From: an uncultured Fibrobacter sp.
Lineage (GTDB): Bacteria > Fibrobacterota > Fibrobacteria > Fibrobacterales > Fibrobacteraceae
DNA: 64,000 nucleotides
Assembly: GCA_946539715.1 (NCBI GenBank)
Contig: CAMNHR010000038.1
Coordinates: 14,873-78,872, forward strand
Reading direction: 5' to 3'
The notes below the pieces were generated by a model. It made no database searches, was not told the origin of the DNA, and saw only the letters and a program-made list of their open reading frames with translations. The translations under genes and the position numbers were made by a program. Positions 2,826 through 35,669 of this stretch are shown piece by piece. The number at the start of each line of letters is the position of its first letter. The first letter of the stretch is position 1.

Positions 2826-2885
2826 GAATTCGGAATTAGGAATTGTTTTTTCTAATTCCGAACTCCGAATCCCGAACTCCGAACT
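2826..2885. repeat. heptamer-array inverted repeat (GAATTCG GAATTAG GAATT / TAATTCC GAACTCC GAATCCC GAACTCC GAACT)
   Basis: Exact 7-nt periodicity; the two arms are approximate reverse complements around a T-rich centre. Confidence 0.85.
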
Positions 2886-2889
2886 AACT

Positions 2890-3771
2890 ATGCGTTTCCT
2901 TGCCATCATCATATTAGCCATAGCGGTCATTGCGGCGGCCTTCCATTATGCGAAACCGCTCCCTGGCATTAATTTCGACGAGTCCTTCTTGCCGAAGGCT
3001 AACTACGTGAGGTACATCGCCGCAGGGAACGACGCTTCGGTGGCAGGACTTTTCTGGATCAAGGGCCTTACGGAACTTGGCGACAGTTTCTTGAGTGGCA
3101 AGGAGTATGCTTACCTGAGCCACGTGGCGAACCTCTGCACGGAACTGGATAGCTTGTTTTACACTCCCTACTACTTTGTGAGTGCCATGACTCAGATGGA
3201 TTCCAAGGACACCACCGATTATATTGTGATGGACAGGGCACTGAGAACTTATCCTCAATACTGGCGGTTGGCCGTGGCTCACGCCTTGCGGCTTTCCAAG
3301 GGGCCTTACCCCAACAAGACCAAGGCGGCAAATATCATGCGGCCTTATTTCGACAGTCCCGACACCACTATCCCGCCCCATATCCGCACCATTTACCGGA
3401 CTTTTGAACTGGATACCATGCAGACGGAAACGGCTGTCGAAATGATACTGAACGACGTGATGCAGCCCCGTTTCAAGAAATTCCGGAGCAGTTTTTACAA
3501 CAAAACTTTCCGAGTTCTCGGGTACCGTGGTTTAAGGCAGGGAGCGGATTCTACGGTGTACAACGATGTCCAAAACACTATTGACCTGTTTGCCGATGGC
3601 AAGATTTCTCCTGTCCAGGCTTACAATCATTTGCTGCAGCTGAAAAAGCCCGAAGAGGTAAAGCCCGCCGATTCAACGGCGGTGGATTCAACGAAAGCTG
3701 ATTCTACGGTAATCAATGCTGTCGCAGCGGATACTGTCGCTGCCGCCGCAACCGATACGACCAGCAACTAG
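2890..3771 (+). CDS. hypothetical membrane-anchored protein
   Basis: ORF with N-terminal hydrophobic helix MRFLAIIILAIAVIAAAF. ATG at 2890 preferred because the 2824 extension only translates the heptamer repeat. Confidence 0.6.
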   Translation: MRFLAIIILAIAVIAAAFHYAKPLPGINFDESFLPKANYVRYIAAGNDASVAGLFWIKGLTELGDSFLSGKEYAYLSHVANLCTELDSLFYTPYYFVSAMTQMDSKDTTDYIVMDRALRTYPQYWRLAVAHALRLSKGPYPNKTKAANIMRPYFDSPDTTIPPHIRTIYRTFELDTMQTETAVEMILNDVMQPRFKKFRSSFYNKTFRVLGYRGLRQGADSTVYNDVQNTIDLFADGKISPVQAYNHLLQLKKPEEVKPADSTAVDSTKADSTVINAVAADTVAAAATDTTSN

Positions 3772-3792
3772 CGGCATCTTGAAACCATCGGC

Positions 3793-3819
3793 CCTAACCA
3801 CTAACCACTAATCACTAAC
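3793..3819. repeat. heptamer array (CCTAACC ACTAACC ACTAATC ACTAAC)
   Basis: Four tandem 7-nt units. Complementary in type to the array at 5653-5687, on the far side of the two minus-strand genes. Confidence 0.8.
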
Positions 3820-3845
3820 GGCTTACGGCCTGACTTTCCTAACGC

Positions 3846-4616
3846 CTATTTCCCGCAGCGCTTGGCGTTGTTGGGCAGCCCCATCAGTTCAAAGGCGTTC
3901 TTGCAGCGGAGCCGCAGGTCGTCTTTTTCTTTCTGCGGAACTCCCTTGATCAAGGAACGCTCCCAGAGGATTGTGGCGGTCATGTAGGTGTAGTTGCTCT
4001 TGATGGATTTTTCTTCGGCGGACTTGTATAGGTTTTCCGCTTCGGAGTTACCCAGGAGTCTCTTGACCTTTGCCGCGGTGTAGGCGTAAAAGCCTCCGTC
4101 CGTATCGCTGTTCTTGCCCGTCATCTTGAGGGCGGCGTTGGCCTCGTCTTCGTGGCCCGCTCCAGCGTAGGCGGTAGCGCATTCCGAATAGTAGGCGGCT
4201 TTCAGGGCTTCGTCTCGTTTCTTGATGCTGCCGTCGTCAATGGAGCGACAAATCTTTTCGGCGTCGCCGTATTTTTCCCGGGCGTTGGCCAGTGCCACCT
4301 TCGACTGGTTGAGCATCAATGCGGAATTTTCGTCCAGGGCTTCGGGACGCACCACCTTCAACAGCGAGTCCGCAAAGTTCAGGTCCAGACTCATGATGCG
4401 GACCCTCGCCATAGACAACAAGACCCGTCCTTCAGAGGCCAAATCGGCTTCCTTGCGGCTTGCAAGCAGAGCTCGTTCTAGTTGGCCGTAACCCTTGGCG
4501 AACTTTCCGTTGGCAATGGACTTCTGGGCGCGAAAGGCCAGCGTCGAAGACTCGGAAGCGAAGCACATTCCCGAAAAAACAAGGACCAGGGCCAGGGCGA
4601 AGATTCTATTTACCAT
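3846..4616 (-). CDS. hypothetical secreted protein (helical-repeat/TPR-like?)
   Basis: Signal-peptide-like N-terminus MVNRIFALALVLVFSGMCFA; Ala/Leu-rich helical composition; 7-nt overlap with upstream MlaD gene. Confidence 0.6.
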   Translation of the reverse strand: MVNRIFALALVLVFSGMCFASESSTLAFRAQKSIANGKFAKGYGQLERALLASRKEADLASEGRVLLSMARVRIMSLDLNFADSLLKVVRPEALDENSALMLNQSKVALANAREKYGDAEKICRSIDDGSIKKRDEALKAAYYSECATAYAGAGHEDEANAALKMTGKNSDTDGGFYAYTAAKVKRLLGNSEAENLYKSAEEKSIKSNYTYMTATILWERSLIKGVPQKEKDDLRLRCKNAFELMGLPNNAKRCGK

Positions 4617-5617
4617 AGGGTCTCCACCATGTAGGGAATGCTGTCGCGGTTAGGCATGTTCCGGTTGATAATCCACATGTTGGAAATGCCCTCCATTAGC
4701 TCGTCCGCGTTTTCCAGGGTCTGTTCCGTAGATTCCATGAAGTCCGAAAGACCGATGGTAATTTTCCCGAGTTCGGTAATCATGTTGTCGGCGCGTTCCA
4801 CCGTTCCTTCAAGCTTGCCCATGAGCCCGTCCACCTTTCCGGGCAGGGGTTTCAGTTCCGTCATCATGCCCGAAACATCGTCCATCATGCCGGAGACGTT
4901 GTTCATCACGTTGTCCATCCGGCTCACGAGGGGCGGAACGGTCAACTGCAAGGTGTCCATCAGGTCCGAAACCTTGTGAATGGCCCTTGTTCCGCTGAGG
5001 GTAATGTCGTCCAGGCGCACAAGCTGTCGGTTCAGGTTGTCGTAGAGGGCACGGGAACCGAACAGGGCGCCGATGGTGGTTCCCGTATCCATGGCCATGG
5101 CCACTAGGGTGTCTGCGGCATCGATAAGCTGGTTCACGCGGCCCAGCAGTTCGTTGGCCGTCTCCAGCACGGTCTCGATGTCCTGGGCCTTGCCTGGCGG
5201 CAAGAAATCCCCGTTTTCTAGCACACGGCCTTTCCCGCGCTTGACATCTATGTTGACCACACGGGCCGAAATCACATTCTGGTCGCGAATGGCGTACACT
5301 TGGGCGCTGTCGGTAATCCAGTTCTGGAATTGCTTGCGGAGGGTGAATTCCATATAGACGCCGTCGCCCTCGATCTTCATGTCCGAAATCTGACCCACAT
5401 CTACACCGCTAATCTGCACGCGGGTGCCGGGCCTAAGTCCCAGGGCCTTGTCGAAGGTACTGTGGAGCTTGTATTCCTCCACGCCGATCATTCCGCTGGT
5501 AAAAAGCTTCGTATAGAGCACAAGTCCGAACACCATCACGGCAACCGTAAAGAAGATACCGACCAAAAGGCCGGACATCTCCATCCAGTTTATTTGCTTG
5601 ATAGGCTTGAACTTCAT
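4610..5617 (-). CDS. MlaD/MCE-domain protein
   Basis: N-terminal TM helix followed by an MCE-like core (GLRPGTRVQISGVDVGQISDM); C-terminal coiled repeats. Confidence 0.75.
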   Translation of the reverse strand: MKFKPIKQINWMEMSGLLVGIFFTVAVMVFGLVLYTKLFTSGMIGVEEYKLHSTFDKALGLRPGTRVQISGVDVGQISDMKIEGDGVYMEFTLRKQFQNWITDSAQVYAIRDQNVISARVVNIDVKRGKGRVLENGDFLPPGKAQDIETVLETANELLGRVNQLIDAADTLVAMAMDTGTTIGALFGSRALYDNLNRQLVRLDDITLSGTRAIHKVSDLMDTLQLTVPPLVSRMDNVMNNVSGMMDDVSGMMTELKPLPGKVDGLMGKLEGTVERADNMITELGKITIGLSDFMESTEQTLENADELMEGISNMWIINRNMPNRDSIPYMVETLW

Positions 5618-5652
5618 GAAAAAAAATATAGAAACAGGTTTGGCCAGTGTTT

Positions 5653-5772
5653 GGTGATTAATGACTGGTGATTAGGGGTTAGGGGGAGGCTTCCCCCTGG
5701 TTTCAGCCCGCCCTGCGGTCTTCCACCACCCCTACTCCTAGGGGCTTCGCCCCTAAAACCCCTAATCTCTAG
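5653..5772. repeat. heptamer-array inverted repeat (GGTGATT AATGACT GGTGATT AGGGGTT AGGGGGA ... CCCCTAC TCCTAGG .. CCCCTAA AACCCCT AATCTCT)
   Basis: G-rich arm at 5653-5687 and C-rich arm at about 5727-5772 flank a unique centre containing GGGGGAGGCTTCCCCC; lies in a divergent promoter region. Confidence 0.8.
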
Positions 5773-5832
5773 CGTCGGGGGTCTGAGGTCGATGCGCTTT
5801 GAACCGGACTTTTCATTACCTATCTTTAAACC

Positions 5833-7023
5833 ATGAATTTCCTTGATTTTTTGAATAATTCAGTAACGCCCTACCATACGGTAGAGAACCTGAAGGCTTT
5901 TTTGGGTGCTGGAACAGAAAAAAAGGTCCAATTGTTCGAACGAGGCGGGGCGCTGATTGCGGTCCGTTTACCTCGGGCGGCAAGTGCAGAATCCAAGTTC
6001 AAAATAGCTCTGGCCCATACGGACTACCCGACATTGAAAATCACCCCCAATCCGGACTGTTCGGCTGCGGGCGTACGGACGCTCCACCCCGAAGTTTACG
6101 GCAGTCCCATTTTCGCCAGCTGGCTGGACCGAGATTTAGGATACGCCGGACTTTTGGCCTACGAACTGCAAGGCAAGGTACAGACAAAGTTGTTCCGTGG
6201 AGAAAAGCTGTTCCGCATTCCGCAGCTTGCAGTCCACCTGAACCGAAATGTCAATCAGGACGGCCTGAAGGTGAACCCCCAGACGGACTTGAACGCCCTG
6301 TGGACGGCCATTGACGGCAAGGAACGTTTTGCGGAGGCCTTGTCGGCTGAGCTTCCTCTGGGGGCGCGCCTTCTGGATTTCGACGTGCAGCTGTTCGACG
6401 CTCAAGCCGCACAGCTAGGCGGCTTTGAAGACGAATGGATTTATTCCGGCAGGCTCGATAACCTTTCTAGCTGCCACGCCATCGCAGAAGCCTTTGCCAA
6501 GGCGGAACCTTCGGAGAAGGATTTTCAGGTGGCCGCCTTCTTCAACAACGAAGAGGTGGGCTCCAACACTCGCGAAGGAGCCGCCGGCAATTTCTTGAAG
6601 AGTGTTTTAGATTCTTTAACTCCGAATTCCGAATTCCGAACTCCGAATTCACTCGCCCTTTCCATCGACATGGCTCATGCCTGCCACCCGAACTTTGTAG
6701 CCAAGCACGAGCCGAACCACGCCCCAGTTCTGGGCGGTGGAATTGTCCTCAAGGTCAATGCACAAAAGCGCTATGCCAGCGATGTGTTCTCTAACGCCCA
6801 GTTCAAGCTGATTTGTGAACAAAATAACATTCCGTATCAGACATTTATCATGCGCAACGACATGCCCTGCGGTTCAACGGTAGGCCCTGCCGTTTCGGCA
6901 AGCCTCGGAATCCCGACAGTGGATATCGGCGAGCCTATGCTCAGCATGCACAGCATCCGCGAGATGACTGCAAAAAAAGACCACCAAGGCATGATTGCCC
7001 TGGTGTCTGCATTTTATTTGTAG
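5833..7023 (+). CDS. M18-family (aspartyl) aminopeptidase
   Basis: SGRLDNLSSCHA, FFNNEEVGS, DMAHACHPNF, GSTVGP and DIGEPMLSMHSIRE motifs. Confidence 0.85.
   Translation: MNFLDFLNNSVTPYHTVENLKAFLGAGTEKKVQLFERGGALIAVRLPRAASAESKFKIALAHTDYPTLKITPNPDCSAAGVRTLHPEVYGSPIFASWLDRDLGYAGLLAYELQGKVQTKLFRGEKLFRIPQLAVHLNRNVNQDGLKVNPQTDLNALWTAIDGKERFAEALSAELPLGARLLDFDVQLFDAQAAQLGGFEDEWIYSGRLDNLSSCHAIAEAFAKAEPSEKDFQVAAFFNNEEVGSNTREGAAGNFLKSVLDSLTPNSEFRTPNSLALSIDMAHACHPNFVAKHEPNHAPVLGGGIVLKVNAQKRYASDVFSNAQFKLICEQNNIPYQTFIMRNDMPCGSTVGPAVSASLGIPTVDIGEPMLSMHSIREMTAKKDHQGMIALVSAFYL
6618..6650 (+). repeat. heptamer array inside the aminopeptidase CDS (AACTCCG AATTCCG AATTCCG AACTCCG AATTC)
   Basis: 33 nt, so frame-preserving; translated as LTPNSEFRTPNS; same unit family as the intergenic arrays at 2826-2885 and 12804-12835. 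Confidence 0.85.
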
Positions 7024-7030
7024 GACTTAT

Positions 7031-8068
7031 TTACGAAAGCCATTTCAGCAGCCGGATGACGCCCATCTTGGCGCACTCGTTGTGGGCCGAGACGTTGGTG
7101 CGGTGTTCGATGGCCTTGCGGTTCTGGTGGTAGAATTCATAGGCGCGGAGCAGCATCTCTTCGTTGGTCTTTGTGGGCTGGAAGCCCAGTTCTTTCTTGA
7201 TTTTTGACGTGTCGAAAACGAAGGTGCTGGCAATCATCTTGTACTGGTAGGGGCCGAGGGGCGAAATGCCGAGCTTGCTGGCGAGCTTCATGCAAGGGAT
7301 AATAAACCATTTGGGGAAATGGGCCAGCCTGGATTTTGACTTGCCATGCTCGATGACGTAGCTGTACACCTCGTTGAAGGTCTTCACGTTGTCCGAGCCG
7401 ATGTTGAATACGGTGGTCCCTTGGTAATTCAAGGCGAGTTCACAGGCGTTGGCCAAGTCCTTCGCGTAGATAAACTGGTAACGGTTGTTTCCGTCGCCTA
7501 CCATCCAGAGTTTTCGGTTTTCGTCAATAAATTCAAAGAGGATGGAAAGCAGTCCGAGTCGGCCTTCGTCCATGATGGTAGGACAGCGGAAGATGACAGA
7601 GTTCAGCTTGTCCTTGCGGGCGAAGAGAATCTTTTCCCCTTCCAGCTTGGACTTGCCGTAAATCTCGATGGGGTTGGGTTCTTCTGCTTCGGTGACGGGG
7701 TCGTCGAAATTCTTAGCCCAAAGGCAGTTCGAGGATGTGAACACGAGCTTGTTCACATTGTGGCGGATACAGGCGTCGGCAATAATTTCTGTGCCATCTA
7801 CGTTGGATGTCCAGAGGTTGTTGATGCGCTTGCGGTCGTGGGCCAGCATGGCGGCCAGGTGGAATACGGCTTCGAACTGGTTTTCGCTGAATATCTTTTC
7901 AACCTGTTCCTTGTCACGGATATCGCCCAAAATGCTGGTGAGGTTTTCGTGCTTGTCTGGGTCAGGGCATAGGTCGATACTTACGCATTTATGGCCCTTT
8001 GCAAGGAGCTCCTTTTTGAGAATGGAGCCAAAGAATCCGGCGCCGCCGGTAATCAGGAAACAGGACAT
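7031..8068 (-). CDS. NAD-dependent epimerase/dehydratase (extended SDR)
   Basis: N-terminal Rossmann motif ITGGAGFFGS; SDR-like length and layout. Confidence 0.8.
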   Translation of the reverse strand: MSCFLITGGAGFFGSILKKELLAKGHKCVSIDLCPDPDKHENLTSILGDIRDKEQVEKIFSENQFEAVFHLAAMLAHDRKRINNLWTSNVDGTEIIADACIRHNVNKLVFTSSNCLWAKNFDDPVTEAEEPNPIEIYGKSKLEGEKILFARKDKLNSVIFRCPTIMDEGRLGLLSILFEFIDENRKLWMVGDGNNRYQFIYAKDLANACELALNYQGTTVFNIGSDNVKTFNEVYSYVIEHGKSKSRLAHFPKWFIIPCMKLASKLGISPLGPYQYKMIASTFVFDTSKIKKELGFQPTKTNEEMLLRAYEFYHQNRKAIEHRTNVSAHNECAKMGVIRLLKWLS

Positions 8069-8124
8069 GGCTAATACCCTATGTGTAGAATTACTTTGGG
8101 GGTAAAATTACTAACTTTTTTGCT

Positions 8125-8592
8125 ATGGATTTCGAAAGTTCCGTGCTCGGAAAGATAAAATCGAAGATTCCCAGCCGAAGGGGAGTTGTGGGCCAGTTCT
8201 TACGGTATTTCGTGACTGGCGGTCTCGCCTTTATTGTGGATTTTGGGGCTTTTGCACTTGCCCTCTACTATTTTGACATCCATTACCTGATTTCGAACTT
8301 GATTGGCCTTGCGGCAGGAAACGTGGTCAACTACCTCTTGACCGTGAGGTGGGTGTTCAGCACGGAAAAGCGTAAAATGGAAAAGTACGTTTTTCTGGAA
8401 GTGGTTGTTTTTGTGTTGATAAGCCTTTTCGGGATGGGATTGAACGAATTGCTGATGTATGTGTTTGTCGGCGTGCTTGGTATTCAGGAAATGATATCCA
8501 AGGTGGTTGCCGCGATAATCGTACTTCTGTACAATTTTCTTGCGAGAAAATTTATTCTGTTCAAATCGGGAAACAAAAAACCGAATTCCTAA
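8125..8592 (+). CDS. GtrA-family membrane protein
   Basis: About 150 aa with four predicted TM helices; [17 protein letters not shown] and ARKFILFK ends typical of GtrA-like proteins. Confidence 0.75.
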
Positions 8593-8600
8593 GGTACTTT

Positions 8601-10229: not shown

Positions 10230-10242
10230 ACCGGTAATTTTA

Positions 10243-12000: not shown

Positions 12001-12058
12001 ATTGGTCGTATAATTCTCATTTTTGTATATTACCATTGCAAAGATGAAGGCTTGAAAA

Positions 12059-12796
12059 ATGCGATTGTTTTTGGTCATGTTGTGTGTGCTGTCGGTGTCG
12101 CTTTTTGCGCGACCTATAAACGACGGCAATAAACTTTTTAAGAATGGCGACTATGCCGGTGCTTTGGAAAAGTATATGAAGGCCCGGGAAGCGGAGCCTG
12201 CAAACCCGTTGTTGTTTTACAATATCGGCACTTGCCAGTACAAGTTGGGCAATTACGACGAGGCCAAGAAGGAATTGGAAAGCGCCGTACGCATGCCCGA
12301 CAAGAAAATGGCGGCCAAGGCGGCCTACAACCTGGCCAATACACATTTTCGCATAGGTGAAAAGGCGGCCGAAGGTAGCGAACGCATTGCCGCCTGGCGG
12401 GAGTCCGTTGCCTACTTGAAAAAGGCTATCGACCTGGACAATGGTTTTGAAAACGCCAAGAAAAACGTGGAAATCGTGCAGCGTAAGCTGAAAGAAGAAC
12501 TGGACAAGCAAAAGCAGAACCAGGAACAGAATCAGGACCAAAACAACGACCAGAAACAGCCGCCCCTGAGCGAAAAGGCGAAGGAAGTTCTGGCCCGTGC
12601 ATTGCAGCTTTGCAAGGACGGCAAGTATGCCGAAGGCAAGGAAATGCTGGAAAACCTGATTGCCGAAGACGAAACGGCTGGTCAGCTCAGCGGGCATGTG
12701 CAGCGCATTGACGACATTATCGAAATCAAGGCTGGCCGAAAGCCCAAGGCAAAGATTGACGCCAGCAACACCGACAACGACCTGGAGGTAATCTGA
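12059..12796 (+). CDS. TPR-repeat protein with QNQ/D low-complexity linker
   Basis: Signal-like N-terminus; TPR-type repeats (GDYAGALEKYMKA, GNYDEAKKELESA); KQKQNQEQNQDQNNDQKQ linker. Confidence 0.7.
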   Translation: MRLFLVMLCVLSVSLFARPINDGNKLFKNGDYAGALEKYMKAREAEPANPLLFYNIGTCQYKLGNYDEAKKELESAVRMPDKKMAAKAAYNLANTHFRIGEKAAEGSERIAAWRESVAYLKKAIDLDNGFENAKKNVEIVQRKLKEELDKQKQNQEQNQDQNNDQKQPPLSEKAKEVLARALQLCKDGKYAEGKEMLENLIAEDETAGQLSGHVQRIDDIIEIKAGRKPKAKIDASNTDNDLEVI

Positions 12797-12803
12797 TGAT
12801 TAT

Positions 12804-12835
12804 AATTCGGGGTTCGGAGTTCGGAGTTCGGAATT
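12804..12835. repeat. heptamer array (AATTCGG GGTTCGG AGTTCGG AGTTCGG AATT)
   Basis: Complement orientation of the AAYTCCG unit family. Confidence 0.85.
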
Positions 12836-12882
12836 GTCATTGCGAAACGCATCATCCTGAGCGGCGAAACCGCGAAGGATCC
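12836..12882 (+). repeat. GTC-hairpin (REP-like) element, composite
   Basis: GTCATTGCGaaaCGCATCATCCTgagcggcgaaaccgcgaAGGATCC; related to the element at 48478-48515. Confidence 0.7.
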
Positions 12883-12924
12883 AGTCATTCGTCACCCTGG
12901 AGCGTAGCAATAGGGTCCATTGTT

Positions 12925-13557
12925 ATGGTTTTGCTTTTGTCCGCAGCTGCCTTTGCCGCCCCCAAGTCGGCATCGGCCTACTACAGCGATGCGGCATTCC
13001 AGTATATTGAGAACCGCTTGCCCTCTGCAGAAATTACCTGTAACGAAGGCCTGCAATACTACCCCAACGATCAAAAGTTGCAGATGCTCCTGGACCGTAT
13101 TCACGAGGCCAAGGACGAGCAGAAGAACGAAAACAAGAAGAACGACAAGAACCAGGATAACAACCAAGACCAGAATCAAGACCAAAACCAGCAGGACCAG
13201 CAAAACCAGGACCAAAACGGCGAAGGCAATTCCAGCGGTTCAGAAAGTTCCTCAAGCGCTTCCGATGAGCAGGACCAGAACGGCGGCGGCCAGTCCAGCA
13301 GCTCGGATGCGGGAAGCTCCGGCGGCGAAGGCGGTGCCGGCGAACAGCCCGAACCTGAGCAGTCCGAAGAAGGCTCCAGCGACAGCCAGGGCGATTCCTC
13401 TAACGATGGCGCAGAACCGGAAGAACAGCCCGTGCAGATGGGCGAGATGAGCCCCGAAGAAGCGGCACAGCTCCTGAAGGATTTTGACGAACAGAACGGC
13501 GAACGTAAGCCCTGGAAGCCTATCCGCGGCCAGGCTCGGCCAGCTAAGGACTGGTAA
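12925..13557 (+). CDS. hypothetical secreted low-complexity (Q/N/D, S/G/E-rich) protein; start uncertain
   Basis: The ORF track starts at 12796, but the first 43 codons translate repeat elements. The ATG at 12925 precedes a hydrophobic segment. Confidence 0.5.
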   Translation: MVLLLSAAAFAAPKSASAYYSDAAFQYIENRLPSAEITCNEGLQYYPNDQKLQMLLDRIHEAKDEQKNENKKNDKNQDNNQDQNQDQNQQDQQNQDQNGEGNSSGSESSSSASDEQDQNGGGQSSSSDAGSSGGEGGAGEQPEPEQSEEGSSDSQGDSSNDGAEPEEQPVQMGEMSPEEAAQLLKDFDEQNGERKPWKPIRGQARPAKDW

Positions 13558-13567
13558 GGAGGTTAAT

Positions 13568-15007: not shown

Positions 15008-15011
15008 TTCC

Positions 15012-16400: not shown

Positions 16401-16505
16401 TCATGAGTTGCAAGTTGCGAGTTATGAGTTTTAATTATGGACTAAAATATTTTTGTACTTTTCTCAGAGGCGCATAGCGCCGACTTATGACTCATGACTC
16501 AGGAC
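16401..16505. repeat. heptamer-array inverted repeat (TCATGAG TTGCAAG TTGCGAG TTATGAG ... CTTATGA CTCATGA CTCAGGA)
   Basis: Arms at 16401-16430 and 16484-16505 are complementary in unit type; the centre holds the GGCGCataGCGCC hairpin; the right arm overlaps the next start codon. Confidence 0.85.
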
Positions 16506-16715
16506 TACACAGACATAATAGATCTGCCCTACCCGAGGGACGACTGGAACTTTCTCATGAAACACCCCCGCATGAGCATGGAATCCCGTGCGAAGATTTT
16601 CGCCCCCTTTGCGGCCCTAAGGGGCCACAGCACCGCCCTTGCCAAGACCGCCGAGCAGAAAATGGACGACGTGGCCCACGAATTGACCCTGGACGACCAG
16701 GAATTCGGTGCATAA
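16494..16715 (+). CDS. YolD-like small protein (partner of Y-family polymerases)
   Basis: MSMESRAKIFAPFAALRGH matches the YolD-like core; lies directly downstream of the polymerase, as in Bacillus yqjW-yqjX and uvrX-yolD. Confidence 0.6.
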   Translation: MTQDYTDIIDLPYPRDDWNFLMKHPRMSMESRAKIFAPFAALRGHSTALAKTAEQKMDDVAHELTLDDQEFGA

Positions 16716-19042: not shown

Positions 19043-19074
19043 AGCCCTTTACCATCCGTCGGTTTATACACCTC

Positions 19075-22403: not shown

Positions 22404-22420
22404 CGCGAGAAATGTAGAAA

Positions 22421-22564
22421 TAAGGGATTAGGGGCTAGAGACTAGAGATTAGGATTTAGTGAACAAGAAACACGCACTTCGTGCGTTTGGAACGAATGGC
22501 GAAACCATGGTATTTTTCTCTAACCCCTAAATCCTAGATCCTAACCCCTAGATCCTAATCTCTG
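22421..22564. repeat. heptamer-array inverted repeat (TAAGGGA TTAGGGG CTAGAGA CTAGAGA TTAGGAT ... CTCTAAC CCCTAAA TCCTAGA TCCTAAC CCCTAGA TCCTAAT)
   Basis: Arms at 22421-22461 and 22518-22564 flank the hairpin AAACGCACttcGTGCGTTT; lies in the divergent promoter region between the DMT gene and glk. Confidence 0.85.
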
Positions 22565-24503: not shown

Positions 24504-24511
24504 AACTTGTT

Positions 24512-24552: not shown

Positions 24553-24568
24553 AGATATTTACCGGGTC

Positions 24569-25507: not shown

Positions 25508-25611
25508 GTTGGTTCCGCCTTTTGGGAATGATTTTTGACGATTTGACACCATATCTATCGCTATTAGAAACTAAAAAGTCAAATGGGAGTGTTTTTTCTA
25601 AATTTGGCCCC

Positions 25612-27048: not shown

Positions 27049-27209
27049 AATAGCACTACACATCCCTTGATATAGTGATAAATGGCGTATTTTTATGCCT
27101 TTTATCTTTTTTTGTGGATATTTGGCATTTTTTTGATTATTTTCATTCCGTTAGGTATTGCAGCATCGCGTGTTGCAGTGTATGCTGGTACAAAAAAAAG
27201 GAGAGGTGT

Positions 27210-29696: not shown

Positions 29697-30583
29697 AGCT
29701 TCTTGCGGCTCATCCAGCTGAGCACCAGGTTTTGCCAGATCACGTAGCAGGTGGGGGCGAGAGCTACCACCGGGCCGGCGTACAGCGTAGATATCCAGAT
29801 GACCAGGGTGGTGTTCTTTTGACCCATGCTCTGGGAACCTTCGATGGGCCTACGATTCCTTTCGCAGAACCAGCCAAGCCAGAACAGTAAAATGCAAAGC
29901 ACCAGCGAAATTCCCGCCATCCATGGGAGTTTTCCGCTGTTCCACAGATCCATAAATCCCATTTCGCGAATGTCGAAGCTCGCCTTGGCCAATATGACGA
30001 ACACGGAGAAGGTCCACACGAACATGGTGTACTTCTGGAACTTGGCCGCCCTGTCGGCAAGCTCCGGATAAAAGGCCCGAAGCCCAAGCGCAAAAGCTAG
30101 CGGAATACTGATGATGGGCTGTATGGTATTGAAGATTTTCCAGGCGATTTCAGAAAGGCTTGCGTCTGCTCCGGTCAGGTAGCCAAAAATTAGCGGGATG
30201 GAGAAGCAGGCGATCAGGTTGCCGCTCAGGAATATTTTCAGGGCCAGCGATGCCGAACCGCCCAGCATTTTCGCCATGGCGGGAGCTGCATTTGCGGGCG
30301 GGCACAGGGCGATGATGGCCCCTCCCAAGAGAACTTCCCGCGGGAGGTTGAACGCTGTAACGATGGTCCATAAGATTCCGATGAGAATCAAGCTTGCCAC
30401 GAAGGCGCGAATCTCAATCTTGAAGGTGTATCCGTGGGTCTGGGGCGGAATCTTGGTCACGAAGGTGAGGAACATCATGGTGCCGATCAAAAACGGCATC
30501 AGGGGGGATAGTATGTGGGCTTGCGGGAAAAGAATTCCGAGCAAAATAGCCACAGGCATCAAGATAGCGCGTAAATTTTTCAT
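29693..30583 (-). CDS. polytopic membrane transporter, bile-acid:Na+ symporter (BASS)-like
   Basis: About 9-10 TM helices; ALCPPANAAPAMAKMLGGSASLA resembles the BASS signature region; 4-nt overlap with the upstream GT2 gene. Confidence 0.5.
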   Translation of the reverse strand: MKNLRAILMPVAILLGILFPQAHILSPLMPFLIGTMMFLTFVTKIPPQTHGYTFKIEIRAFVASLILIGILWTIVTAFNLPREVLLGGAIIALCPPANAAPAMAKMLGGSASLALKIFLSGNLIACFSIPLIFGYLTGADASLSEIAWKIFNTIQPIISIPLAFALGLRAFYPELADRAAKFQKYTMFVWTFSVFVILAKASFDIREMGFMDLWNSGKLPWMAGISLVLCILLFWLGWFCERNRRPIEGSQSMGQKNTTLVIWISTLYAGPVVALAPTCYVIWQNLVLSWMSRKKL

Positions 30584-31734
30584 TCTTCGTCACTACGGGC
30601 TTCGCGGGCCCAACCACCGGATTTTTCCTTGCCGAACGAAAGGAAGAATCCCTTGAGCATAGCCATGTTCATAGACAAGAAGTAGTAAGCTCCAGGGATA
30701 ATCTTGAATAGGCCTGCCAGCAAGAACGCAATCAGGATTCCAAGAGAAATCCGGTAAGGAGTGTAATACCATGCCAGGGGAATGTTCACAAGGAGCAGCA
30801 AAATCATGATATGGGGAGAAAACCAGCGAAGGACCTTGTGGGACAAGAACAGGTAGCAGCGCAGAGGCCTTAATGGATTAAGCAGCGGAAGGTAAGAAAG
30901 CATGTAGTTGAAGTTGGCGCGGCCGATGCGGACTTTGCGCCGGAATTCGCCGGAGGTTTCTTTGGAGGTTTGCTCTGCACCGATGGCGCTGGCGATGAAT
31001 GTGCAGTAATAGCCCTTTTGCAATATTTTCGTTGTGACGAAAAAGTCGTCCATTATGCTCTTCTTGGTAGGCAGGTCCGTATACAGTTCCTTGCGGATGG
31101 CGTAAAGAGCTCCATTTCCACCGATGAGCAAGTCCATCATGCCCTCGAATTTCTTGATTTCGGATTCCAGATCCCAGTAGGCACTTTCGCCACGACCCAG
31201 TTCAGAGCCGCTCTTGTCGGTGAGAATCAGGTGCCCGCAGGCGCATCCAATTTTCTTGTCCTTGAAGGGGTCTGTAAGCTTGCGCACCACGTTTGGGAAC
31301 AGCATGGTGTTGGCATCGCAGAAAAGAAGGATTTCGCCAGAGGCTTCTTTTTGTAGCCTGTTCAGCATGGCAGCCTTGCCTGCGTTTTGGGGAGCCTTGA
31401 CGAGGGTGATGCCCTGGTCTTTGTATCGCTCTACGATTTCTGCTGTCTTGTCGGCGGAACCGTCGTCACCAATAAGGATTTGCAGTTTTTCTTTGGGGTA
31501 GTCCAGTTCCAGCAGGTTTTGGATTTTACGCTCAATAACGGCTTCTTCGTTGTAGGCGGAAATCAAGATGGAAACGGTGGGTAAACTCTCGCTATGGTCT
31601 TCGCCTCGTCCCTTCCTCTTAAAAATTTCACTGATGAATGGCAATGTGATGGGAAATAGTACGTAGCAGTGGATAAAAAGGAGCAGTAGAACCCAAAAAG
31701 CTATCTGCAAGTAGAAAAGAATCTGCTCGTTCAT
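30580..31734 (-). CDS. family-2 glycosyltransferase, membrane-integrated (processive synthase-like)
   Basis: VSILISAYNEE, DDGSADKT and CDANT motifs; N-terminal and C-terminal TM helices. Confidence 0.8.
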   Translation of the reverse strand: MNEQILFYLQIAFWVLLLLFIHCYVLFPITLPFISEIFKRKGRGEDHSESLPTVSILISAYNEEAVIERKIQNLLELDYPKEKLQILIGDDGSADKTAEIVERYKDQGITLVKAPQNAGKAAMLNRLQKEASGEILLFCDANTMLFPNVVRKLTDPFKDKKIGCACGHLILTDKSGSELGRGESAYWDLESEIKKFEGMMDLLIGGNGALYAIRKELYTDLPTKKSIMDDFFVTTKILQKGYYCTFIASAIGAEQTSKETSGEFRRKVRIGRANFNYMLSYLPLLNPLRPLRCYLFLSHKVLRWFSPHIMILLLLVNIPLAWYYTPYRISLGILIAFLLAGLFKIIPGAYYFLSMNMAMLKGFFLSFGKEKSGGWAREARSDEE

Positions 31735-32228
31735 CGTTCAATCCACTCTTTTTCTTTTTCCAGGAACTTGTCCAGCAACATCTGCATTTCTTGGGGCGAC
31801 ATGGAGTCTGCCACAGTCAATATAGAAAGTCCCTTGGGGGCAATCAGAACAAAAGAGGGGAGAACGTTCAGTTCCCACACTTCGGAGAAGCATTTTTTTG
31901 CGGTGGCCTTTTTCCCGTCGCAGACAATGGGCGATTCGGAATCCACGTCCAGCTTGACGGGATAGAATTTCTTGTTCAGAATGGAGGCTACCGTGGGGTT
32001 CATATAGACATTTTTGTCCATCACCCGGCAGGGAATGCACCAGTCGGCGTACATGTCCACGAAAATAAGCTTGGGTTCGGTCTTTGCCTTTTCAAGAGCG
32101 GTACTGTAATCCATCCACTGGACTAGGGATTGGGGGATAACCGGAGCCTTTCCGGAGTTTGGCGCTGCAAAAACGACGCCCGAAAAAAAGACGACATAAA
32201 AAATGATACCGGCAAGGTGGCGAAACAT
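31731..32228 (-). CDS. secreted thioredoxin-fold protein
   Basis: Signal peptide; WCIPC redox motif. Confidence 0.75.
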   Translation of the reverse strand: MFRHLAGIIFYVVFFSGVVFAAPNSGKAPVIPQSLVQWMDYSTALEKAKTEPKLIFVDMYADWCIPCRVMDKNVYMNPTVASILNKKFYPVKLDVDSESPIVCDGKKATAKKCFSEVWELNVLPSFVLIAPKGLSILTVADSMSPQEMQMLLDKFLEKEKEWIER

Positions 32229-32231
32229 GGG

Positions 32232-32618
32232 CTAGTCCTCCCCCCGCTTGCGCGCCGGTACTGTCTTGTTCTGCTCGATTAGCGTGTCCAGTCGGTCAAT
32301 GACCGCCTTTTGGAACGGTACCCACATGTCCCTGTCGTCGAGGATGGCATTCGCCTTCGTGAGGAATAGATCCCTGCTGTAGCCTGCCGAATCCAGGATT
32401 ACCTTGCGCTTGATTCGGGCTGTGGGGGAATCCTTGCCGTACATCTGTTCGACAATCAGCAGTTCGGTGTAGGTGTTCACGAATTTCTGGTCAACCGAAG
32501 GGGCTTTCTTGTCACAGCCCATCTGCAGGCACAACAAGACCGTAAGTCCAAGAATCATCAAGAAGCGCCCGGCGACGTTTTTTAAACTCTTGATAATTCG
32601 TGGTTGAATGTCGGTCAT
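32232..32618 (-). CDS. hypothetical lipoprotein
   Basis: ATG at 32618 gives MTDIQ...LLCLQMGC lipobox. The upstream part of the track ORF (to 33032) overlaps ftsY out of frame. Confidence 0.6.
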   Translation of the reverse strand: MTDIQPRIIKSLKNVAGRFLMILGLTVLLCLQMGCDKKAPSVDQKFVNTYTELLIVEQMYGKDSPTARIKRKVILDSAGYSRDLFLTKANAILDDRDMWVPFQKAVIDRLDTLIEQNKTVPARKRGED

Positions 32619-32626
32619 GACGGTTT

Positions 32627-33547
32627 TCAGGTTTCGCTTTCCAGGGCGTTTTCGAAAAGGCCTTCTACATATTCGGCCTTGCTGAAAGGCACCAGCTGGT
32701 CGATGCGTTCGCCCATGCCAATCCAGCGGATGGGAATCTGCAGGGAACTTGCGATGGAAAGCACCGCTCCACCGCGGGCCGTGCCATCCAGCTTGGTGAC
32801 CACCAGGCCCGTAAGGGGGAAACTCTGGTTGAAAATCTTGGTCTGGTTGATGGTGTTCTGACCGGTGTTGCCGTCGATGACCAGCCACATGTCGTGAGGC
32901 ATGTCGGGGTTCACCTTCTTGATGACGCGGACTATCTTCTTGAGTTCTTCCATCAGGTAGTCCTTGTTGTGCAGACGGCCTGCGGTATCGATGAGCACCA
33001 CGTCGCAGCCGCGGGCCACAGCCGCATTGCAAGCATCAAACGCCACTGCTGCAGGGTCGGATCCTTCTTGATGTTTTACGAATTCGGCTCCGGAGCGTTC
33101 GGCCCAGGTTTCCAGCTGGTCGATGGCCGCCGCACGGAAGGTGTCGCAGGCGGCAATCATCACCTTCTTGCCTTCGTCCTTGAGGCGGGCGGCCAGTTTC
33201 CCGATGGTGGTGGTCTTGCCGGCACCGTTTACACCGATGACCAGCACCACATGGGGCTTGCCCTTGAGTTCAAACGGGGGAGGGTCTTTCAAGAGGCGCT
33301 CCGCCTCGCTCCGCATAATGTCAAGAACTTGCTCTGTGGTCAGTGACTTGCCGAGAGCCTGCTCGCGCAAGGCGTCAGTCAACAGGAATGCGGCTTCGAC
33401 GCCCACGTCGGCCTTGATGAGGTGTTCCTCCAGCTCTTCCAGGGTTTCGTCGGTAATTTTGCCGGCGCCTACAATGCCCTTGAGCTCGCCCATGAGGGCG
33501 TCACGGGTCTTGGCAAGGCCGCTCTTGATGGCAGAAAAAAGTCCCAT
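32627..33547 (-). CDS. ftsY: signal recognition particle receptor (NG domain only)
   Basis: GVNGAGKTTTIGKLA, DTAGR and TKLDGTARGG motifs. Confidence 0.9.
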   Translation of the reverse strand: MGLFSAIKSGLAKTRDALMGELKGIVGAGKITDETLEELEEHLIKADVGVEAAFLLTDALREQALGKSLTTEQVLDIMRSEAERLLKDPPPFELKGKPHVVLVIGVNGAGKTTTIGKLAARLKDEGKKVMIAACDTFRAAAIDQLETWAERSGAEFVKHQEGSDPAAVAFDACNAAVARGCDVVLIDTAGRLHNKDYLMEELKKIVRVIKKVNPDMPHDMWLVIDGNTGQNTINQTKIFNQSFPLTGLVVTKLDGTARGGAVLSIASSLQIPIRWIGMGERIDQLVPFSKAEYVEGLFENALESET

Positions 33548-34128
33548 TATACCAGGCTCTCGACCTTATCGACCAGACCGTAGGCCTTGGCCTCTTCGGC
33601 GCTCATGAAGTTGTCGCGTTCGGTGTCCTTGTCGATTTCTTCGATGCTATGGCCCGAAGTTTCGGCAAGAATCTTGCCCGTGATGTTACGGATGCGGAGC
33701 ATTTCTTCGGCCTGGATCTGGATATCGCTGGCGGGCGCCACGATTTCGCCGTGAATCAGGGGCTGGTGGATCATGATACGGGCGTTGGGCCAGGCGTAGC
33801 GCTTGCCTTTGGCACCGGAGGTGAGGAGGACAGCCCCCATGGAGGCTGCCTGCCCGCAACAGACGGTGACCACGTCGCTCTTGATGGCGTTCATGCAGTC
33901 GTAAATGGCAAGACCGCTAGAGATCACTCCGCCCGGGCTGTTGATAAAGAACACGATGTCTTCGTGGTTCAGGGAATCCAGGTACAGGAGCTGCTTGACA
34001 ATGCGTTCGGCGCTTTCGTCATCCACTCCGCCCCACAAAAAAATCCTGCGCTTGGAGGCGAGGAACTCCTCGGCCTTTTTCATCATTTCGGGTGTCTGGT
34101 TTTCTTTCTTTTCGCTACAATCGGCCAT
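33547..34128 (-). CDS. clpP: ATP-dependent Clp protease proteolytic subunit
   Basis: INSPGGVISSGLAIYD, GQAASMGAVLL (Ser) and IMIHQP (His) motifs. Confidence 0.9.
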   Translation of the reverse strand: MADCSEKKENQTPEMMKKAEEFLASKRRIFLWGGVDDESAERIVKQLLYLDSLNHEDIVFFINSPGGVISSGLAIYDCMNAIKSDVVTVCCGQAASMGAVLLTSGAKGKRYAWPNARIMIHQPLIHGEIVAPASDIQIQAEEMLRIRNITGKILAETSGHSIEEIDKDTERDNFMSAEEAKAYGLVDKVESLV

Positions 34129-34223
34129 AATGAATCCTTTTTGTTCAAGTATAATTTAGAAATTATTCAACACTGAATTATCGACATTTCCTTGCAAAAT
34201 GTAAAGATTCCTATATTTGGCCC

Positions 34224-34988
34224 ATGCCCGCGTGCAACGATAAAATTTTGGTAGGCCTTGTCAGTCCCGAAGTCCTCTCCGCCATAGAGTCGGACTCCAT
34301 GCACCCCGTGTTTCTGGACCTACAGGCCTGTTCGGCGCTAGAAATCCGGTATGACTTTTTCGAAGAGTCCCTCTGGCCCTCCCTTTCGGCGCGGGTCCGG
34401 AAGGTAGCGCCCCACGCCATGCAGATAGGCACCATACGCCTTAAGCGGGATGGCGGGGTCTTTCAGGATTCCCGTGCCGGAGACCGCCTGCCCCTGTGGA
34501 AAAACATTCTGGAAGCGGAGCAGGTGCCGGGCTGGCTGGACCTGGAGCAGGACTGCCTCTACGACTACGAAAAGCTGTCCGCCCTGGCCGACCGTCGGAA
34601 TGTAAAAATCCTTATCTCTCAGCACAATTTTTCCCGCACACCTACGGACATGGAACTGCGGGATTACGCCCGAGACGTTTCCCGCCTAGGGGCCGAAGGT
34701 CTGAAAATTGCCGCCATGTGCAATTCCGAAGAGGACTGTGACCGTCTGTACAGGTTCACGCAGAAATTTTCTGGCGACTTTGAACTTTTTGCCGCCTTCG
34801 GCATGGGGGATCTCGGTCGGGTAAGCCGAATCTGGTCCCTGAAAGAGGGGGCGAACCTGACCTATGGGGCCATAGGCCATGTGGCAGCCCCCGGCCAAAT
34901 TCAGGTGCCGGTGATGGCGGAGGCCCTCGAAAAACTGTCGGATTTCCATTCCAAATTCGAAATTTCCGCGTTTTTGAACGAAAAATGA
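34224..34988 (+). CDS. aroD: type I 3-dehydroquinate dehydratase
   Basis: LEIRYDFF, ILISQHNFSRTP and GLKIAAM (catalytic Lys region) motifs; about 250 aa. Confidence 0.65.
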   Translation: MPACNDKILVGLVSPEVLSAIESDSMHPVFLDLQACSALEIRYDFFEESLWPSLSARVRKVAPHAMQIGTIRLKRDGGVFQDSRAGDRLPLWKNILEAEQVPGWLDLEQDCLYDYEKLSALADRRNVKILISQHNFSRTPTDMELRDYARDVSRLGAEGLKIAAMCNSEEDCDRLYRFTQKFSGDFELFAAFGMGDLGRVSRIWSLKEGANLTYGAIGHVAAPGQIQVPVMAEALEKLSDFHSKFEISAFLNEK

Positions 34989-35072
34989 CGGTTTTCCTTT
35001 TTTTATCCTTATTTTTTGGCAAACGGGCCTTAAATTTTCTAAATATCTATCTTGTATATAGAGGATAACGAT

Positions 35073-35537
35073 ATGCGTCTTTCTGAACGGTTTGTAGATA
35101 ATTGCATTTTGATCAATTCTCCTTGCGAAACCAAGGAGGCCATTCTGAACGAACTGGTGGATACACTTTGCAGCGCCTATAAGCTGGAACATCGCGACGA
35201 AATTTTTGAGGCCGTCTGGAACCGCGAAAAGACCCGTTCCACCGGTATCGGTTGCGGCCTGGCCGTGCCCCACGCCAAGATCGACTACGTGGACCGCATG
35301 TGCATGGTGGCCGCCACAGTCGAAAAGGGGCTGGATTTCGAGTCCTTTGACGGCGAACCCGTTTACCTGCTGATTCTCATCGTAAGCCCCGGAAACACCG
35401 TCGGACCGCACCTGAAGGCCCTGTCTTCGGTGAGCCGCCTCTTGGCCGACGGCAACGTGCGCAAGGAGCTGATTGCCGCCAAGACCCCGGCGGAGTTCCT
35501 GACCATCCTCAAGGGCGCCGAGGATAAGTATTTGTAG
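35073..35537 (+). CDS. ptsN: PTS EIIA(Ntr/Fru)-type protein
   Basis: EKTRSTGIGCGLAVPHAK phosphorylation-site motif; GAGGA RBS before the ATG at 35073. Confidence 0.75.
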   Translation: MRLSERFVDNCILINSPCETKEAILNELVDTLCSAYKLEHRDEIFEAVWNREKTRSTGIGCGLAVPHAKIDYVDRMCMVAATVEKGLDFESFDGEPVYLLILIVSPGNTVGPHLKALSSVSRLLADGNVRKELIAAKTPAEFLTILKGAEDKYL

Positions 35538-35553
35538 GCGGCCCTGAGGGCCG

Positions 35554-35669
35554 GGTATTAGGTGGTAGGTTATAGGTATTAGGGCCGAAGGGGGCAAGGT
35601 GTGTCTTGAAGGGACCAGATATTTTAAGTCCGTCGCACCTAAAACCTAACCCCTACAACCTATTACCTG
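35554..35669. repeat. heptamer-array inverted repeat (GGTATTA GGTGGTA GGTTATA GGTATTA GGG ... CACCTAA AACCTAA CCCCTAC AACCTAT TACCTG)
   Basis: Arms at 35554-35584 and 35636-35669 around a 51-nt centre; between ptsN and tRNA-Val. Confidence 0.85.

Follow-up and report, generated by a model that had tools for sequence, protein, structure and literature searches.

Tandem heptanucleotide arrays and heptamer-armed hairpins at gene boundaries in Fibrobacter

The intergenic DNA of an uncultured Fibrobacter sp. carries tandem arrays of degenerate heptamers, repeated with an exact period of 7 and often arranged as the two arms of a long imperfect hairpin. They are described here from a window of 64,000 nt (GenBank assembly GCA_946539715.1, contig CAMNHR010000038.1, positions 14,873 to 78,872 of the forward strand) and from related loci. 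On balance, and with modest confidence, we favour the explanation that they are small intergenic repeat elements of Fibrobacter, driven by slippage, dispersed, and tolerated by selection in one polarity only. Their kind is already known, since they are the counterpart of the short tandemly repeated repetitive (STRR) sequences of cyanobacteria and of the convergent GGGAATC pairs of Xanthomonas. The first-pass annotation of the window, which had described the arrays from the sequence alone, was therefore partly right: the architecture is kept over the sequence, but the kind has been described before, the units are related and the families are dispersed.

The presence of period-7 arrays between genes is confirmed by several counts. 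When genes are placed according to the gene calls of contig DFTB01000007.1 (GCA_002382975.1), the 4326 nt of intergenic DNA in the window hold eight such arrays, against a mean of 0.25 and a maximum of 2 in 300 dinucleotide-preserving shuffles of intergenic DNA, and only 0-1 arrays of any other period. The excess, which the first-pass annotation had been prepared to see explained by composition, therefore stands. The 50.7 kb of coding DNA contain two period-7 arrays, the intergenic density being about 47 times higher. A self-match scan of the window (21-nt window, at least 17 matches) found 28 positions with period 7 and 12 with the coding period 12, whereas periods 3-6 and 8-11 gave none; 7 is the sole period other than a multiple of three that produces strong arrays. 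Tandem Repeats Finder gives nine period-7 rows (2822, 2857, 3794, 6621, 12806, 16482, 22526, 35554 and 35637), and all the coordinates and unit strings first reported agree with the sequence. Two placements had to be revised. The array at 6618, thought to be intergenic, in fact occupies 6616-6651 on the plus strand, in frame inside the M18 aminopeptidase gene, where four TCCGAAY units encode TPNSEFRTPNS in a hypervariable linker. The weak arm noted at 48609 could be located at 48590-48612 (minus strand; CTCATAA CTCACGA CTCG on the plus strand), about 15 nt past the stop of the minus-strand gene 48628-49911, but it lies under the threshold of the self-match scan. An extra array of similar kind was found at 39671-39717, beyond the range first surveyed.

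The period-7 excess is a property of the Fibrobacter lineage. Comparison loci (named L001, L098 and so on) came from two scans: one with the M18 aminopeptidase gene, which gave 35 Fibrobacter loci syntenic with the first 17 kb of the window (1-17 kb), one Fibrobacteraceae locus and outgroups from other phyla (L036-L042), and one with the glycosyltransferase gene at 30580-31731, which gave 47 Fibrobacter-like metagenome loci and 33 loci from distant taxa. The Fibrobacter-like metagenome loci (496 kb) contain 38 strong period-7 arrays versus 0-2 at periods 4, 5, 8, 10 and 11, whereas the loci from distant taxa (449 kb) contain three, similar to any other period, and the outgroup loci L036-L042 contain none. 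Because the Fibrobacter-like loci are rich in such arrays and both the distant loci and the outgroups are not, the excess is assigned to the lineage; the related loci, about 1.3 Mb altogether (1.29 Mb), show it too.

The units are less disparate than they first seemed. The building block would be a degenerate heptanucleotide, YCCTAAC (GTTAGGR on the opposite strand), with variants such as TCCGAAY, AACTCAY, CCCTAAN and CTTTCGT. When 34 distinct consensus units are aligned by rotation, they share the consensus YCCTAAC with an information content of 4.42 bits, compared with 3.40 ± 0.17 for letter-shuffled units, a statistic that is only indicative because the units are not fully independent of one another. 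Moreover, the arrays at 2853, 6618 and 12804 share the unit TCCGAAY (reverse complement GAGTTCG), which does not sit with the initial impression of a different unit at each locus.

Five loci of the window have two arms, and folding bears out the proposal that these are long imperfect hairpins (z-scores from -2.0 to -4.8). Site A fills the gap between pyrF and hypA (2815-2889). Its 5′ arm (2822-2846; TTATGAA TTCGGAA TTAGGAA TTG), G-rich and C-poor, begins 8 nt past the pyrF stop and forms a stem with 2849-2871; its C-rich, G-poor 3′ arm (2849-2886; TAATTCC GAACTCC GAATCCC GAACTCC GAACTA) is about two units longer and ends 3 nt before the hypA start at 2890. The RNA of 2815-2890 folds at -21.4 kcal/mol (z -4.2). 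Site C, in the divergent region of mlaD and the M18 gene, has a 5′ arm at 5653-5697 (GGTGATT AATGACT GGTGATT AGGGGTT AGGGGG, followed by the mini-hairpin GGGGGAGGCTTCCCCC at 5682-5697) and a 3′ arm at 5740-5772 (the mini-hairpin AGGGGCTTCGCCCCT and the arm CCCCTAA AACCCCT AATCTCTAG); the fold of 5640-5780 has a z of -2.0. At site F, between dinB and a gene for 73 residues (s73), the 5′ arm (16401-16430; TCATGAG TTGCAAG TTGCGAG TTATGAG TT) begins directly after the dinB stop, the centre holds a GC-rich mini-hairpin (16469-16481; GGCGCATAGCGCC), and the 3′ arm (16480-16508; CTTATGA CTCATGA CTCAGGA CTAC) provides the called start of s73 at 16494 (fold of 16401-16510, z -2.7). Site G lies in the divergent EamA/glucokinase region and consists of a 5′ arm at 22421-22455 (TAAGGGA TTAGGGG CTAGAGA CTAGAGA TTAGGAT), a central mini-hairpin at 22472-22486 (ACGCACTTCGTGCGT) and a 3′ arm at 22518-22560 (CTCTAAC CCCTAAA TCCTAGA TCCTAAC CCCTAGA TCCTAAT), with a fold of -45.8 kcal/mol for 22415-22564 (z -4.8). 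At site H, between the stop codon of the phosphotransferase system (PTS) EIIA gene and the tRNA-Val promoter, the 5′ arm (35554-35583; GGTATTA GGTGGTA GGTTATA GGTATTA) follows the stop and a GC mini-hairpin (35539-35553), and the 3′ arm (35636-35663; CACCTAA AACCTAA CCCCTAC AACCTAT) ends 20 nt before the -35 box at 35683; the RNA of 35538-35670 folds at -57.8 kcal/mol (z -3.9). The centres of the pairs carry GC-rich mini-hairpins with UUCG- or GNRA-like loops. Beside these, site B is a single array of four CTAACCA units between convergent genes (3790-3820), and site E a single G-rich array of four GGAGTTC units (12804-12837, plus strand) directly after the stop codon of a tetratricopeptide repeat (TPR) gene and the former overlapping start of hypC. 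The RNA folds of the single arms (3772-3845, 6600-6670 and 12797-12925) are not significant. Taken over the loci, about one third of the arrays have the paired form, in which a G-rich array faces its complement across a short centre, usually with a GC mini-hairpin, giving an imperfect hairpin of 75-165 nt.

Such hairpins might be functional RNA stem-loops between cistrons, acting as terminators or attenuators that lack a U tract, as barriers to 3′ exonucleases, or as spacers between stop and start that preserve translational coupling. We consider this quite unlikely, even though the hairpins are significantly stable, are located exactly between the stop and start of formerly overlapping or tightly spaced gene pairs and, at site A, are kept across a clade despite full turnover of the units, and even though most Xanthomonas repeats are transcribed (PMC4692102). 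Canonical intrinsic terminators are rejected because no T run follows the long hairpins: a scan for the consensus (GC-rich stem, then T run) lists none of them, in line with the early statement that they are not simple terminators, and reports only the mini-hairpin 22472-22486 at the centre of site G, on the minus strand. Fibrobacter nevertheless has canonical terminators elsewhere. The tRNA-Val gene has a near-consensus sigma-70-type promoter (35683-35711; TTGACA, 17 nt, TATATT) and a canonical terminator (35802-35829), and therefore the organism uses standard signals. About two thirds of the arrays have no partner, many relatives manage with a gap of 4-5 nt, and two of the hairpin loci of the window sit in divergent promoter regions, a poor place for a terminator. 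RNA folds of the sense and antisense strands do not differ consistently, nor is there an enrichment of G-U pairs, so that selection on the sense RNA through G-U pairs was rejected as well. The Rfam covariance models, consulted as had been recommended, recover tRNA-Val only, with no match to the hairpins either at gathering thresholds or at E ≤ 1. As the hairpins give no sense-RNA folding signal and are not canonical terminators, tolerated dispersed repeats are favoured over a dedicated function.

The arms follow a common polarity. In the pairs, a G-rich, C-poor arm lies 5′ and a C-rich, G-poor arm 3′; this holds for every partnered array of the first set and, in an independent set in which about a third of the arrays are paired, for eight G-rich arrays with their partner to the right and eight C-rich arrays with their partner to the left (16/16, no exception). 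Because the structure is a dyad, the polarity reads alike on both strands. With respect to genes, it is the G-rich strand that comes after stop codons and the G-poor strand that comes before start codons or promoters: as judged from a reading of contexts, all of about 24 arrays near stop codons have at least as much G as C in the sense of that gene, and the arrays near start codons comprise 14 C-rich, three neutral and one exception. The single arms at 12804, 3790 and 39671 also fit, the array at 3790-3820 being of the G-rich type when read in the direction of hypB, a minus-strand gene with its stop codon about 25 nt away. Ribosome-binding sites in Fibrobacter are of the GGAG type, and genes that follow a C-rich arm are without one; at sites A and F, and likewise upstream of the EamA gene, the C-rich arm directly adjoins the start codon and GGAG is missing. 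Generally G-poor leaders are rejected as the cause of the polarity, since leaders free of arrays contain 20% G and GGAG motifs. The idea that the arms serve as arrays of stop codons in three frames was dropped, because about 40% of the G-rich units contain no stop (GAGTTCG, TTCAGAA, GACGAAA, GAGGTTC); it is also opposed by the many C-rich units that contain TAA. Integron attC sites, whose consensus begins RYYYAAC and ends GTTRRRY, have similar core heptamers, but here the polarity is reversed (the GTTAGG-type arm comes first) and the units are in tandem, and this candidate was likewise rejected.

Under the explanation that we favour, placement and polarity would be set by purifying selection acting as a filter. 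A G-rich arm at a start codon would add GGAG-like motifs together with ATG, GTG or TTG triplets, where a G-poor arm would add none; a C-rich arm that comes second would pair as soon as it is transcribed and would not be exposed as free C-rich RNA, the elements presumably being transcribed as stem-loops between cistrons. An alternative is that the arrays are cooperative sites for a single-strand-binding protein of the cold-shock or S1 type, with one heptamer per oligonucleotide-binding (OB) fold domain and the period of 7 as its footprint. This would be consistent with an exact period kept while the sequence drifts around a common consensus, with the position of C-rich arms just upstream of starts without a ribosome-binding site, as with the TAACTGA repeats discussed below, and with the binding of Bacillus CspB to heptamer direct repeats, one protein per heptamer, as summarised in PMC4679880. 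It is very unlikely all the same: the candidate protein is hypothetical, the unit sequences are too variable for one specific reader, half of each hairpin would be double-stranded and out of reach, and a period-7 excess occurs in many unrelated phyla. A broader version would make the heptamer-armed hairpin a selected inter-cistron module, in which one OB-fold domain would read each 7-nt unit on the single-stranded arm and the polarity (G-rich after stops, G-poor before starts) would set whether ribosomes or Rho engage the next gene, by a logic common to the heptamer repeats of cyanobacteria, Xanthomonas, Beggiatoaceae and Bacteroidetes; we find it as doubtful as the functional stem-loops.

Comparison of the same gene junctions between lineages indicates how these elements change. 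The elements fill gene-boundary gaps that were once very short: two of the junctions had 4-5 nt, and a third had some 10 nt ahead of a promoter. The same gap holds different types of unit in different lineages. At site A, many species have a gap of 5 nt (TAATT or TAAGT), whereas the group related to F. succinogenes has hairpins of 74-165 nt with arms of several types (GAATTCG//TCCGAAC in the window, AGTGAGT//AACTCAC, ATGTGNN//CACACTN and AGTTACT//AGTAACT), which differ even among genomes whose flanking proteins are 98% identical. At site F, stop and start overlap in the ancestral arrangement (GTGCATAG or GCATGACC, a 4-nt gap); the group of the window has a 96-nt hairpin and other lineages have other arrays. 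The empty state of site H leaves about 10 nt between the stop codon and the -35 box, exactly where the hairpin of the window is inserted, and at least six different heptamer elements occupy this site in different lineages; ten contigs whose EIIA is identical to that of the window carry two other alleles and not the window's own. The statement that architecture is conserved and not sequence is thus supported at pyrF/hypA, dinB/s73 and EIIA/tRNA-Val, which carry different heptamers in each lineage with arms that always match. A phage-type integrase gene lies beside tRNA-Val, downstream of site H, in one locus (L144, 2525-3465), where it replaces a beta-lactamase-family gene; this region is probably an element integrated at the tRNA.

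Within an element, arrays gain and lose whole 7-nt units, as replication slippage predicts. Site A measures 130 nt in L001, 137 in L003, 144 in L025 and 165 in L005; site H measures 150 or 151, 157 and 164 nt among strains with identical EIIA; and at site B strains with identical PyrF have two or four units, or another unit, CCTAACA. The comparison of unit numbers between strains that had been called for therefore reveals steps of 7 nt at sites A, B and H. In L053 (4360-4441) the CTAACCA array of site B contains an additional segment of about 20 nt, GGACCTTCGGTCCTAATCAC, perhaps a copy of the ACCATCGGTCCTAACCAC before it, perhaps an inserted UUCG mini-hairpin. The C-rich 3′ arm of an element of the site G type has 18 units in L098, 12 in L063 and 4 in L064. 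These three copies (L098 15588-15762, L063 7038-7190, L064 15588-15678) have flanks that are 98-99% identical on the left and 84-86% on the right, and their C-rich arm immediately precedes the start codon for a small hydrophobic protein (MSYGILFLGIFWGFFFFVL...), where the variable arm could act as an expression dial. Growth from within also seems to have occurred at site C: the inner part of about 100 nt (5670-5772, from GTTAGGGGGAGG to CCCCTAAAACCCC) is absent in the close relatives L003, L006 and L034, which have only GATTAGGGTAATTTC, a small palindrome, as if an insertion had split an older short inverted repeat at its centre and so enlarged the hairpin.

Arrays would thus grow by replication slippage, and hairpins could arise in more than one way. 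Units that contain a 6-nt palindrome (GAATTCN, TCATGAN, ACTAGTN) would offer one simple route, as a single direct array of them is already nearly self-complementary; other pairs may have formed by template switching across the central mini-hairpin or arrived as complete elements. Some arrays begin in native sequence, so that birth in place is probably at work alongside spread. Birth in place could be carried to its limit, the arrays being local by-products of mutation in which a local heptamer slips and the second arm is copied by template switching over a small palindrome, with no movement and with selection only against harm. This is unlikely in our estimate, if less so than the other alternatives considered here. 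Arrays that merge with native sequence at sites E and F, the near self-complementarity of palindromic units, the GC mini-hairpins of the centres, the changes in steps of 7 and RNA folding without an advantage of the sense strand all speak for it. It seems difficult to reconcile, however, with the recurrence of whole elements with non-repetitive centres at unrelated loci, with three repeat families in frame in a single M18 linker, with strains that share identical flanking proteins but have unrelated elements at a given site, and with a strict polarity that a neutral process does not predict.

Dispersal is seen in three families, found in 2 to 7 contexts, although most centres of the window are unique within the 1.3 Mb, which are loci and not complete genomes. 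The site G element of the window, including its centre ACGCACTTCGTGCGT, recurs between other genes in L098, L064 and L063, and a more diverged form is present at site H of L064 and L098. A second family, the GACGAAAG module, occurs in at least six contexts, among them the window at 39680-39717. Family members, centres included, thus appear to recur at unrelated, non-orthologous loci, at odds with the first description of the arrays as unlike a transposed repeat family. In the window, the module forms the array at 39671-39717 on the minus strand (AGACGAGAGAACG, the stem-loop CCGCTTTGCGG and CTATAGACGAAAGACGAGAGAGG), after the stop of a CBM48 gene, and is followed by a canonical terminator (39652-39671) with its T run. 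Copies are found at 39680-39717 (minus strand) in the window, L010 7185-7223, L084 6041-6182 and 11158-11197, L100 11154-11189 and L038 9232-9269, with the layout TTT-AGACGARAGAACG, stem-loop, CTAYAGACGARAGACGAGAG. The small stem occurs in six versions that differ in sequence yet all pair (CCGC/GCGG, CTCGC/GCGAG, GACC/GGTC, CCAG/CTGG, GCTC/GAGC and CCC/GGG), and a stop codon usually stands immediately before the module. No Rfam family matches the module, which could be a structured motif of 3′ untranslated regions.

The linker of the M18 aminopeptidase (at about +790) has received repeats of several families. The in-frame TCCGAAY array of the window group is kept in L001-L005, L007, L008 and L034, seven other species (L010, L012, L013, L016, L017, L020 and L033) have the GACGAAAG module at this position, and two species additionally have a 'GTCA' hairpin, a second type of dispersed repeat described below; the copies of all three families keep the reading frame and contain no stop codon. 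The GACGAAAG module has a degenerate stem (GCTCGCAAGCTCGC) in its coding copies, and by comparison with the solved Pseudomonas M18 enzyme the repeat-encoded segment replaces a linker of similar length.

The GTCA hairpins (GTCATTGCGA..., ATCATCCTGAGCGGCGAAACCGCGAAGGATCC, GTCACCCTGGAGCGTAGCAATAGGGTCC) lie in the window at 12836-12918 and 48478-48514. Those at 12836-12918 are nested in one another next to the array of site E, where arrays of several units stand beside GTCA hairpins, and the two adjoin in all 13 array-bearing versions of this site (13/13). The copy within the M18 gene, in frame as SSTSLRSAQNDKS, is at 10809-10841 in L012 and L017.

Families at several loci could also be classical non-autonomous transposons, similar to miniature inverted-repeat transposable elements (MITE) or to the REPIN formed from repetitive extragenic palindromes (REP), whose subterminal heptamers would be binding sites for a transposase supplied in trans. 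This accounts for the dispersed families, for the repeated strikes on the same permissive sites, and for the element of about 146 nt at site H of L084, with inverted ends AGACGAAAGA and TCTTTCGTCT. We nevertheless give it a still slighter chance than the binding-protein footprint. Comparison of filled with empty alleles at sites A, F and H revealed no target-site duplication, none of the copies was seen to have a transposase gene as a neighbour, the ends of the elements are fuzzy and blend into the arrays, and the centres of most window elements are unique within the 1.3 Mb. A search for empty alleles of the L098 locus, by which element ends could be defined, returned none. The Fibrobacter hairpins do resemble REP, REPIN and MITE in their size (75-165 nt), in their location in gaps at gene ends, in forming families at several loci and in their nested insertions; they differ from them in having arms of tandem heptamers and not a conserved palindromic unit, in the lack of target-site duplications or transposase at the loci seen, and in a turnover far faster than that of REP families. 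The comparison that we draw with REP or MITE is that the elements are inferred to be largely non-adaptive dispersed repeats.

Several observations weigh against tolerated, dispersed, slippage-driven repeats. The polarity is broken at site A in L010 and L020, where a G-rich GACGAAA unit is found on both sides. In ten strains with identical PyrF the site A hairpin shows only two point differences (one in the loop, one beside the start codon), so slippage is not uniformly fast; a hypermutable phase-variation switch was for the same reason dropped as a general property. At site E in L028-L030 the array starts from the native ATGAGGTTAC, which is present without an array in L032, and at site F the units include the native ATGA of the stop/start overlap; such seeding from native sequence would argue for birth in place over arrival. 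The compared loci provided no transposase, target-site duplication or defined element ends, and the dispersal could instead reflect ectopic gene conversion or convergence. That the site A hairpin was kept through a complete turnover of its units could betray positive selection for the structure, and hence a function. Finally, the explanation leaves the period of 7 without a reason, a polymerase footprint being an idea that PMC4692102 and PMC4679880 give by citation only, and the reasons it offers for the polarity are ones that we infer.

The belief that no described element has these properties has to be given up, as the over-representation of heptamers, the convergent pairs of Xanthomonas and the same placement relative to genes have all been published (PMC4692102, PMC4679880). 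For Fibrobacter itself, no description of heptamer repeats was found in the searchable literature, the original papers on STRR, long simple sequence repeats (SSR) and small dispersed repeats lying outside that search. The closest parallels (Rehm et al. 2015; PMC4692102) are tandem heptamers in Xanthomonas (GGGAATC) and in Nostoc PCC 7120 (GGGGA(C/T)T). Around 185 GGGAATC arrays are counted in Xanthomonas, 70-75 sites being convergent pairs able to form stem-loops, and in both organisms about 90% of the repeats are intergenic, with about four units per array, fixed and free positions, and a length and sequence that vary among close relatives; no function was found (PMC4692102). The Fibrobacter elements share with them the tandem intergenic heptamers, the convergent pairs with the G-rich array first (16/16 in the independent set), the placement relative to genes and the variability. 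They differ in their many unit variants, in the GC mini-hairpins of their centres, in mostly lacking G runs and in belonging to another phylum; neither GGGAATC nor GGGGA(C/T)T occurs as a triple tandem with up to two mismatches in the 1.29 Mb of Fibrobacter loci. G-quadruplexes or i-motifs have been proposed for the Xanthomonas and Nostoc heptamers, and a few Fibrobacter arms do have G runs (5670-5689, GATTAGGGGTTAGGGGGAGG; 22421-22440; site H of L064 with four GGG runs). Most units contain no GGG (GAATTCG, GAGTTGC, AGTGAGT, AGTTACT, GACGAAA, TAGGTNN), so that the four or more G tracts of the Xanthomonas and Nostoc repeats are generally missing, yet architecture and polarity are the same. For Fibrobacter this reading was already disfavoured and is hardly credible, and since the polarity rule holds there without G runs, G-quadruplexes are disfavoured as a general explanation.

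The STRR of heterocystous cyanobacteria are tandem heptanucleotides of several units, dispersed in intergenic DNA, according to the account of Mazel et al. (1990) given in PMC4692102. In these respects, tandem heptanucleotides of several unit types and intergenic dispersal, the Fibrobacter arrays are alike. The intergenic regions with STRR are reportedly strain-variable and retain stem-loop potential. The STRR units CCCCAGT and CAACAGT are absent from the 1.29 Mb, and TTGGTCA has only near matches there (L024, L070 and L071).

A further parallel comes from marine Beggiatoaceae, some cyanobacteria and Bacteroidetes, where TAACTGA forms direct repeats (MacGregor 2015; PMC4679880); these repeats thus occur in the superphylum that contains Fibrobacter. 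Most of them stand in a single orientation only a few nucleotides ahead of a start codon, where they apparently take the place of a ribosome-binding site, and they differ between strains by 7-nt indels; they consist of a single unit and are nearly always direct, with one inverted case among 170 sets (PMC4679880). The C-rich arms of Fibrobacter, with variants such as TAACTAG, TAACTCA and CAACTCA, have the same orientation before starts, and at sites A and F and the EamA gene they are found just upstream of starts without a ribosome-binding site. TAACTGA itself forms no triple tandem with up to two mismatches in the 1.29 Mb, and the Fibrobacter arrays, unlike the direct TAACTGA set with its one unit, are often paired and of many units.

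More generally, heptanucleotides are the most abundant class of long SSR in many prokaryotes. Genes exclude repeats unless their period is a multiple of 3, and the cause that has been proposed is slippage of the polymerase, favoured at 7 nt (Mrazek et al. 2007, in the summaries of PMC4679880 and PMC4692102). The Fibrobacter arrays have the features of this class: tandem 7-nt units above chance (8 versus 0.25), a bias towards non-coding DNA (eight in 4.3 kb of intergenic versus two in 50.7 kb of coding DNA) and length differences of whole units among relatives, at sites A, B and H and in the element of the site G type. As those summaries present it, the class is statistical, without hairpin pairs, polarity or turnover at orthologous sites.

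The arrays also have consequences for annotation. Gene callers start open reading frames inside them (2824-3771, 12796-13557 and 16494-16715), the likely true starts of the first two coinciding with those of the signal peptides MRFLAIIILAIAV (at 2890) and MVLLLSAAAFAA (at 12926); in the window the C-rich arm supplies the ATG of the 73-residue gene, whereas hairpin-free relatives start at a GTG or ATG overlapping the dinB stop. Array-borne starts at 2824, 12796 and 16494, and repeats translated in frame within a conserved enzyme, are therefore to be reckoned with.

Heptamer repeats have been noted in bacteria since 1990, and both the preference for 7 and their function are still unexplained. 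Fibrobacter brings in a further phylum, one with hundreds of metagenome-assembled genomes related closely enough for the process to be traced at each site individually: among strains with identical flanking proteins, a given junction is empty or occupied by unrelated units, and the gains and losses can be followed in 7-nt steps. That the polarity rule of Xanthomonas and Nostoc holds in Fibrobacter in the absence of G runs speaks against the G-quadruplex as a general explanation of heptamer repeats.

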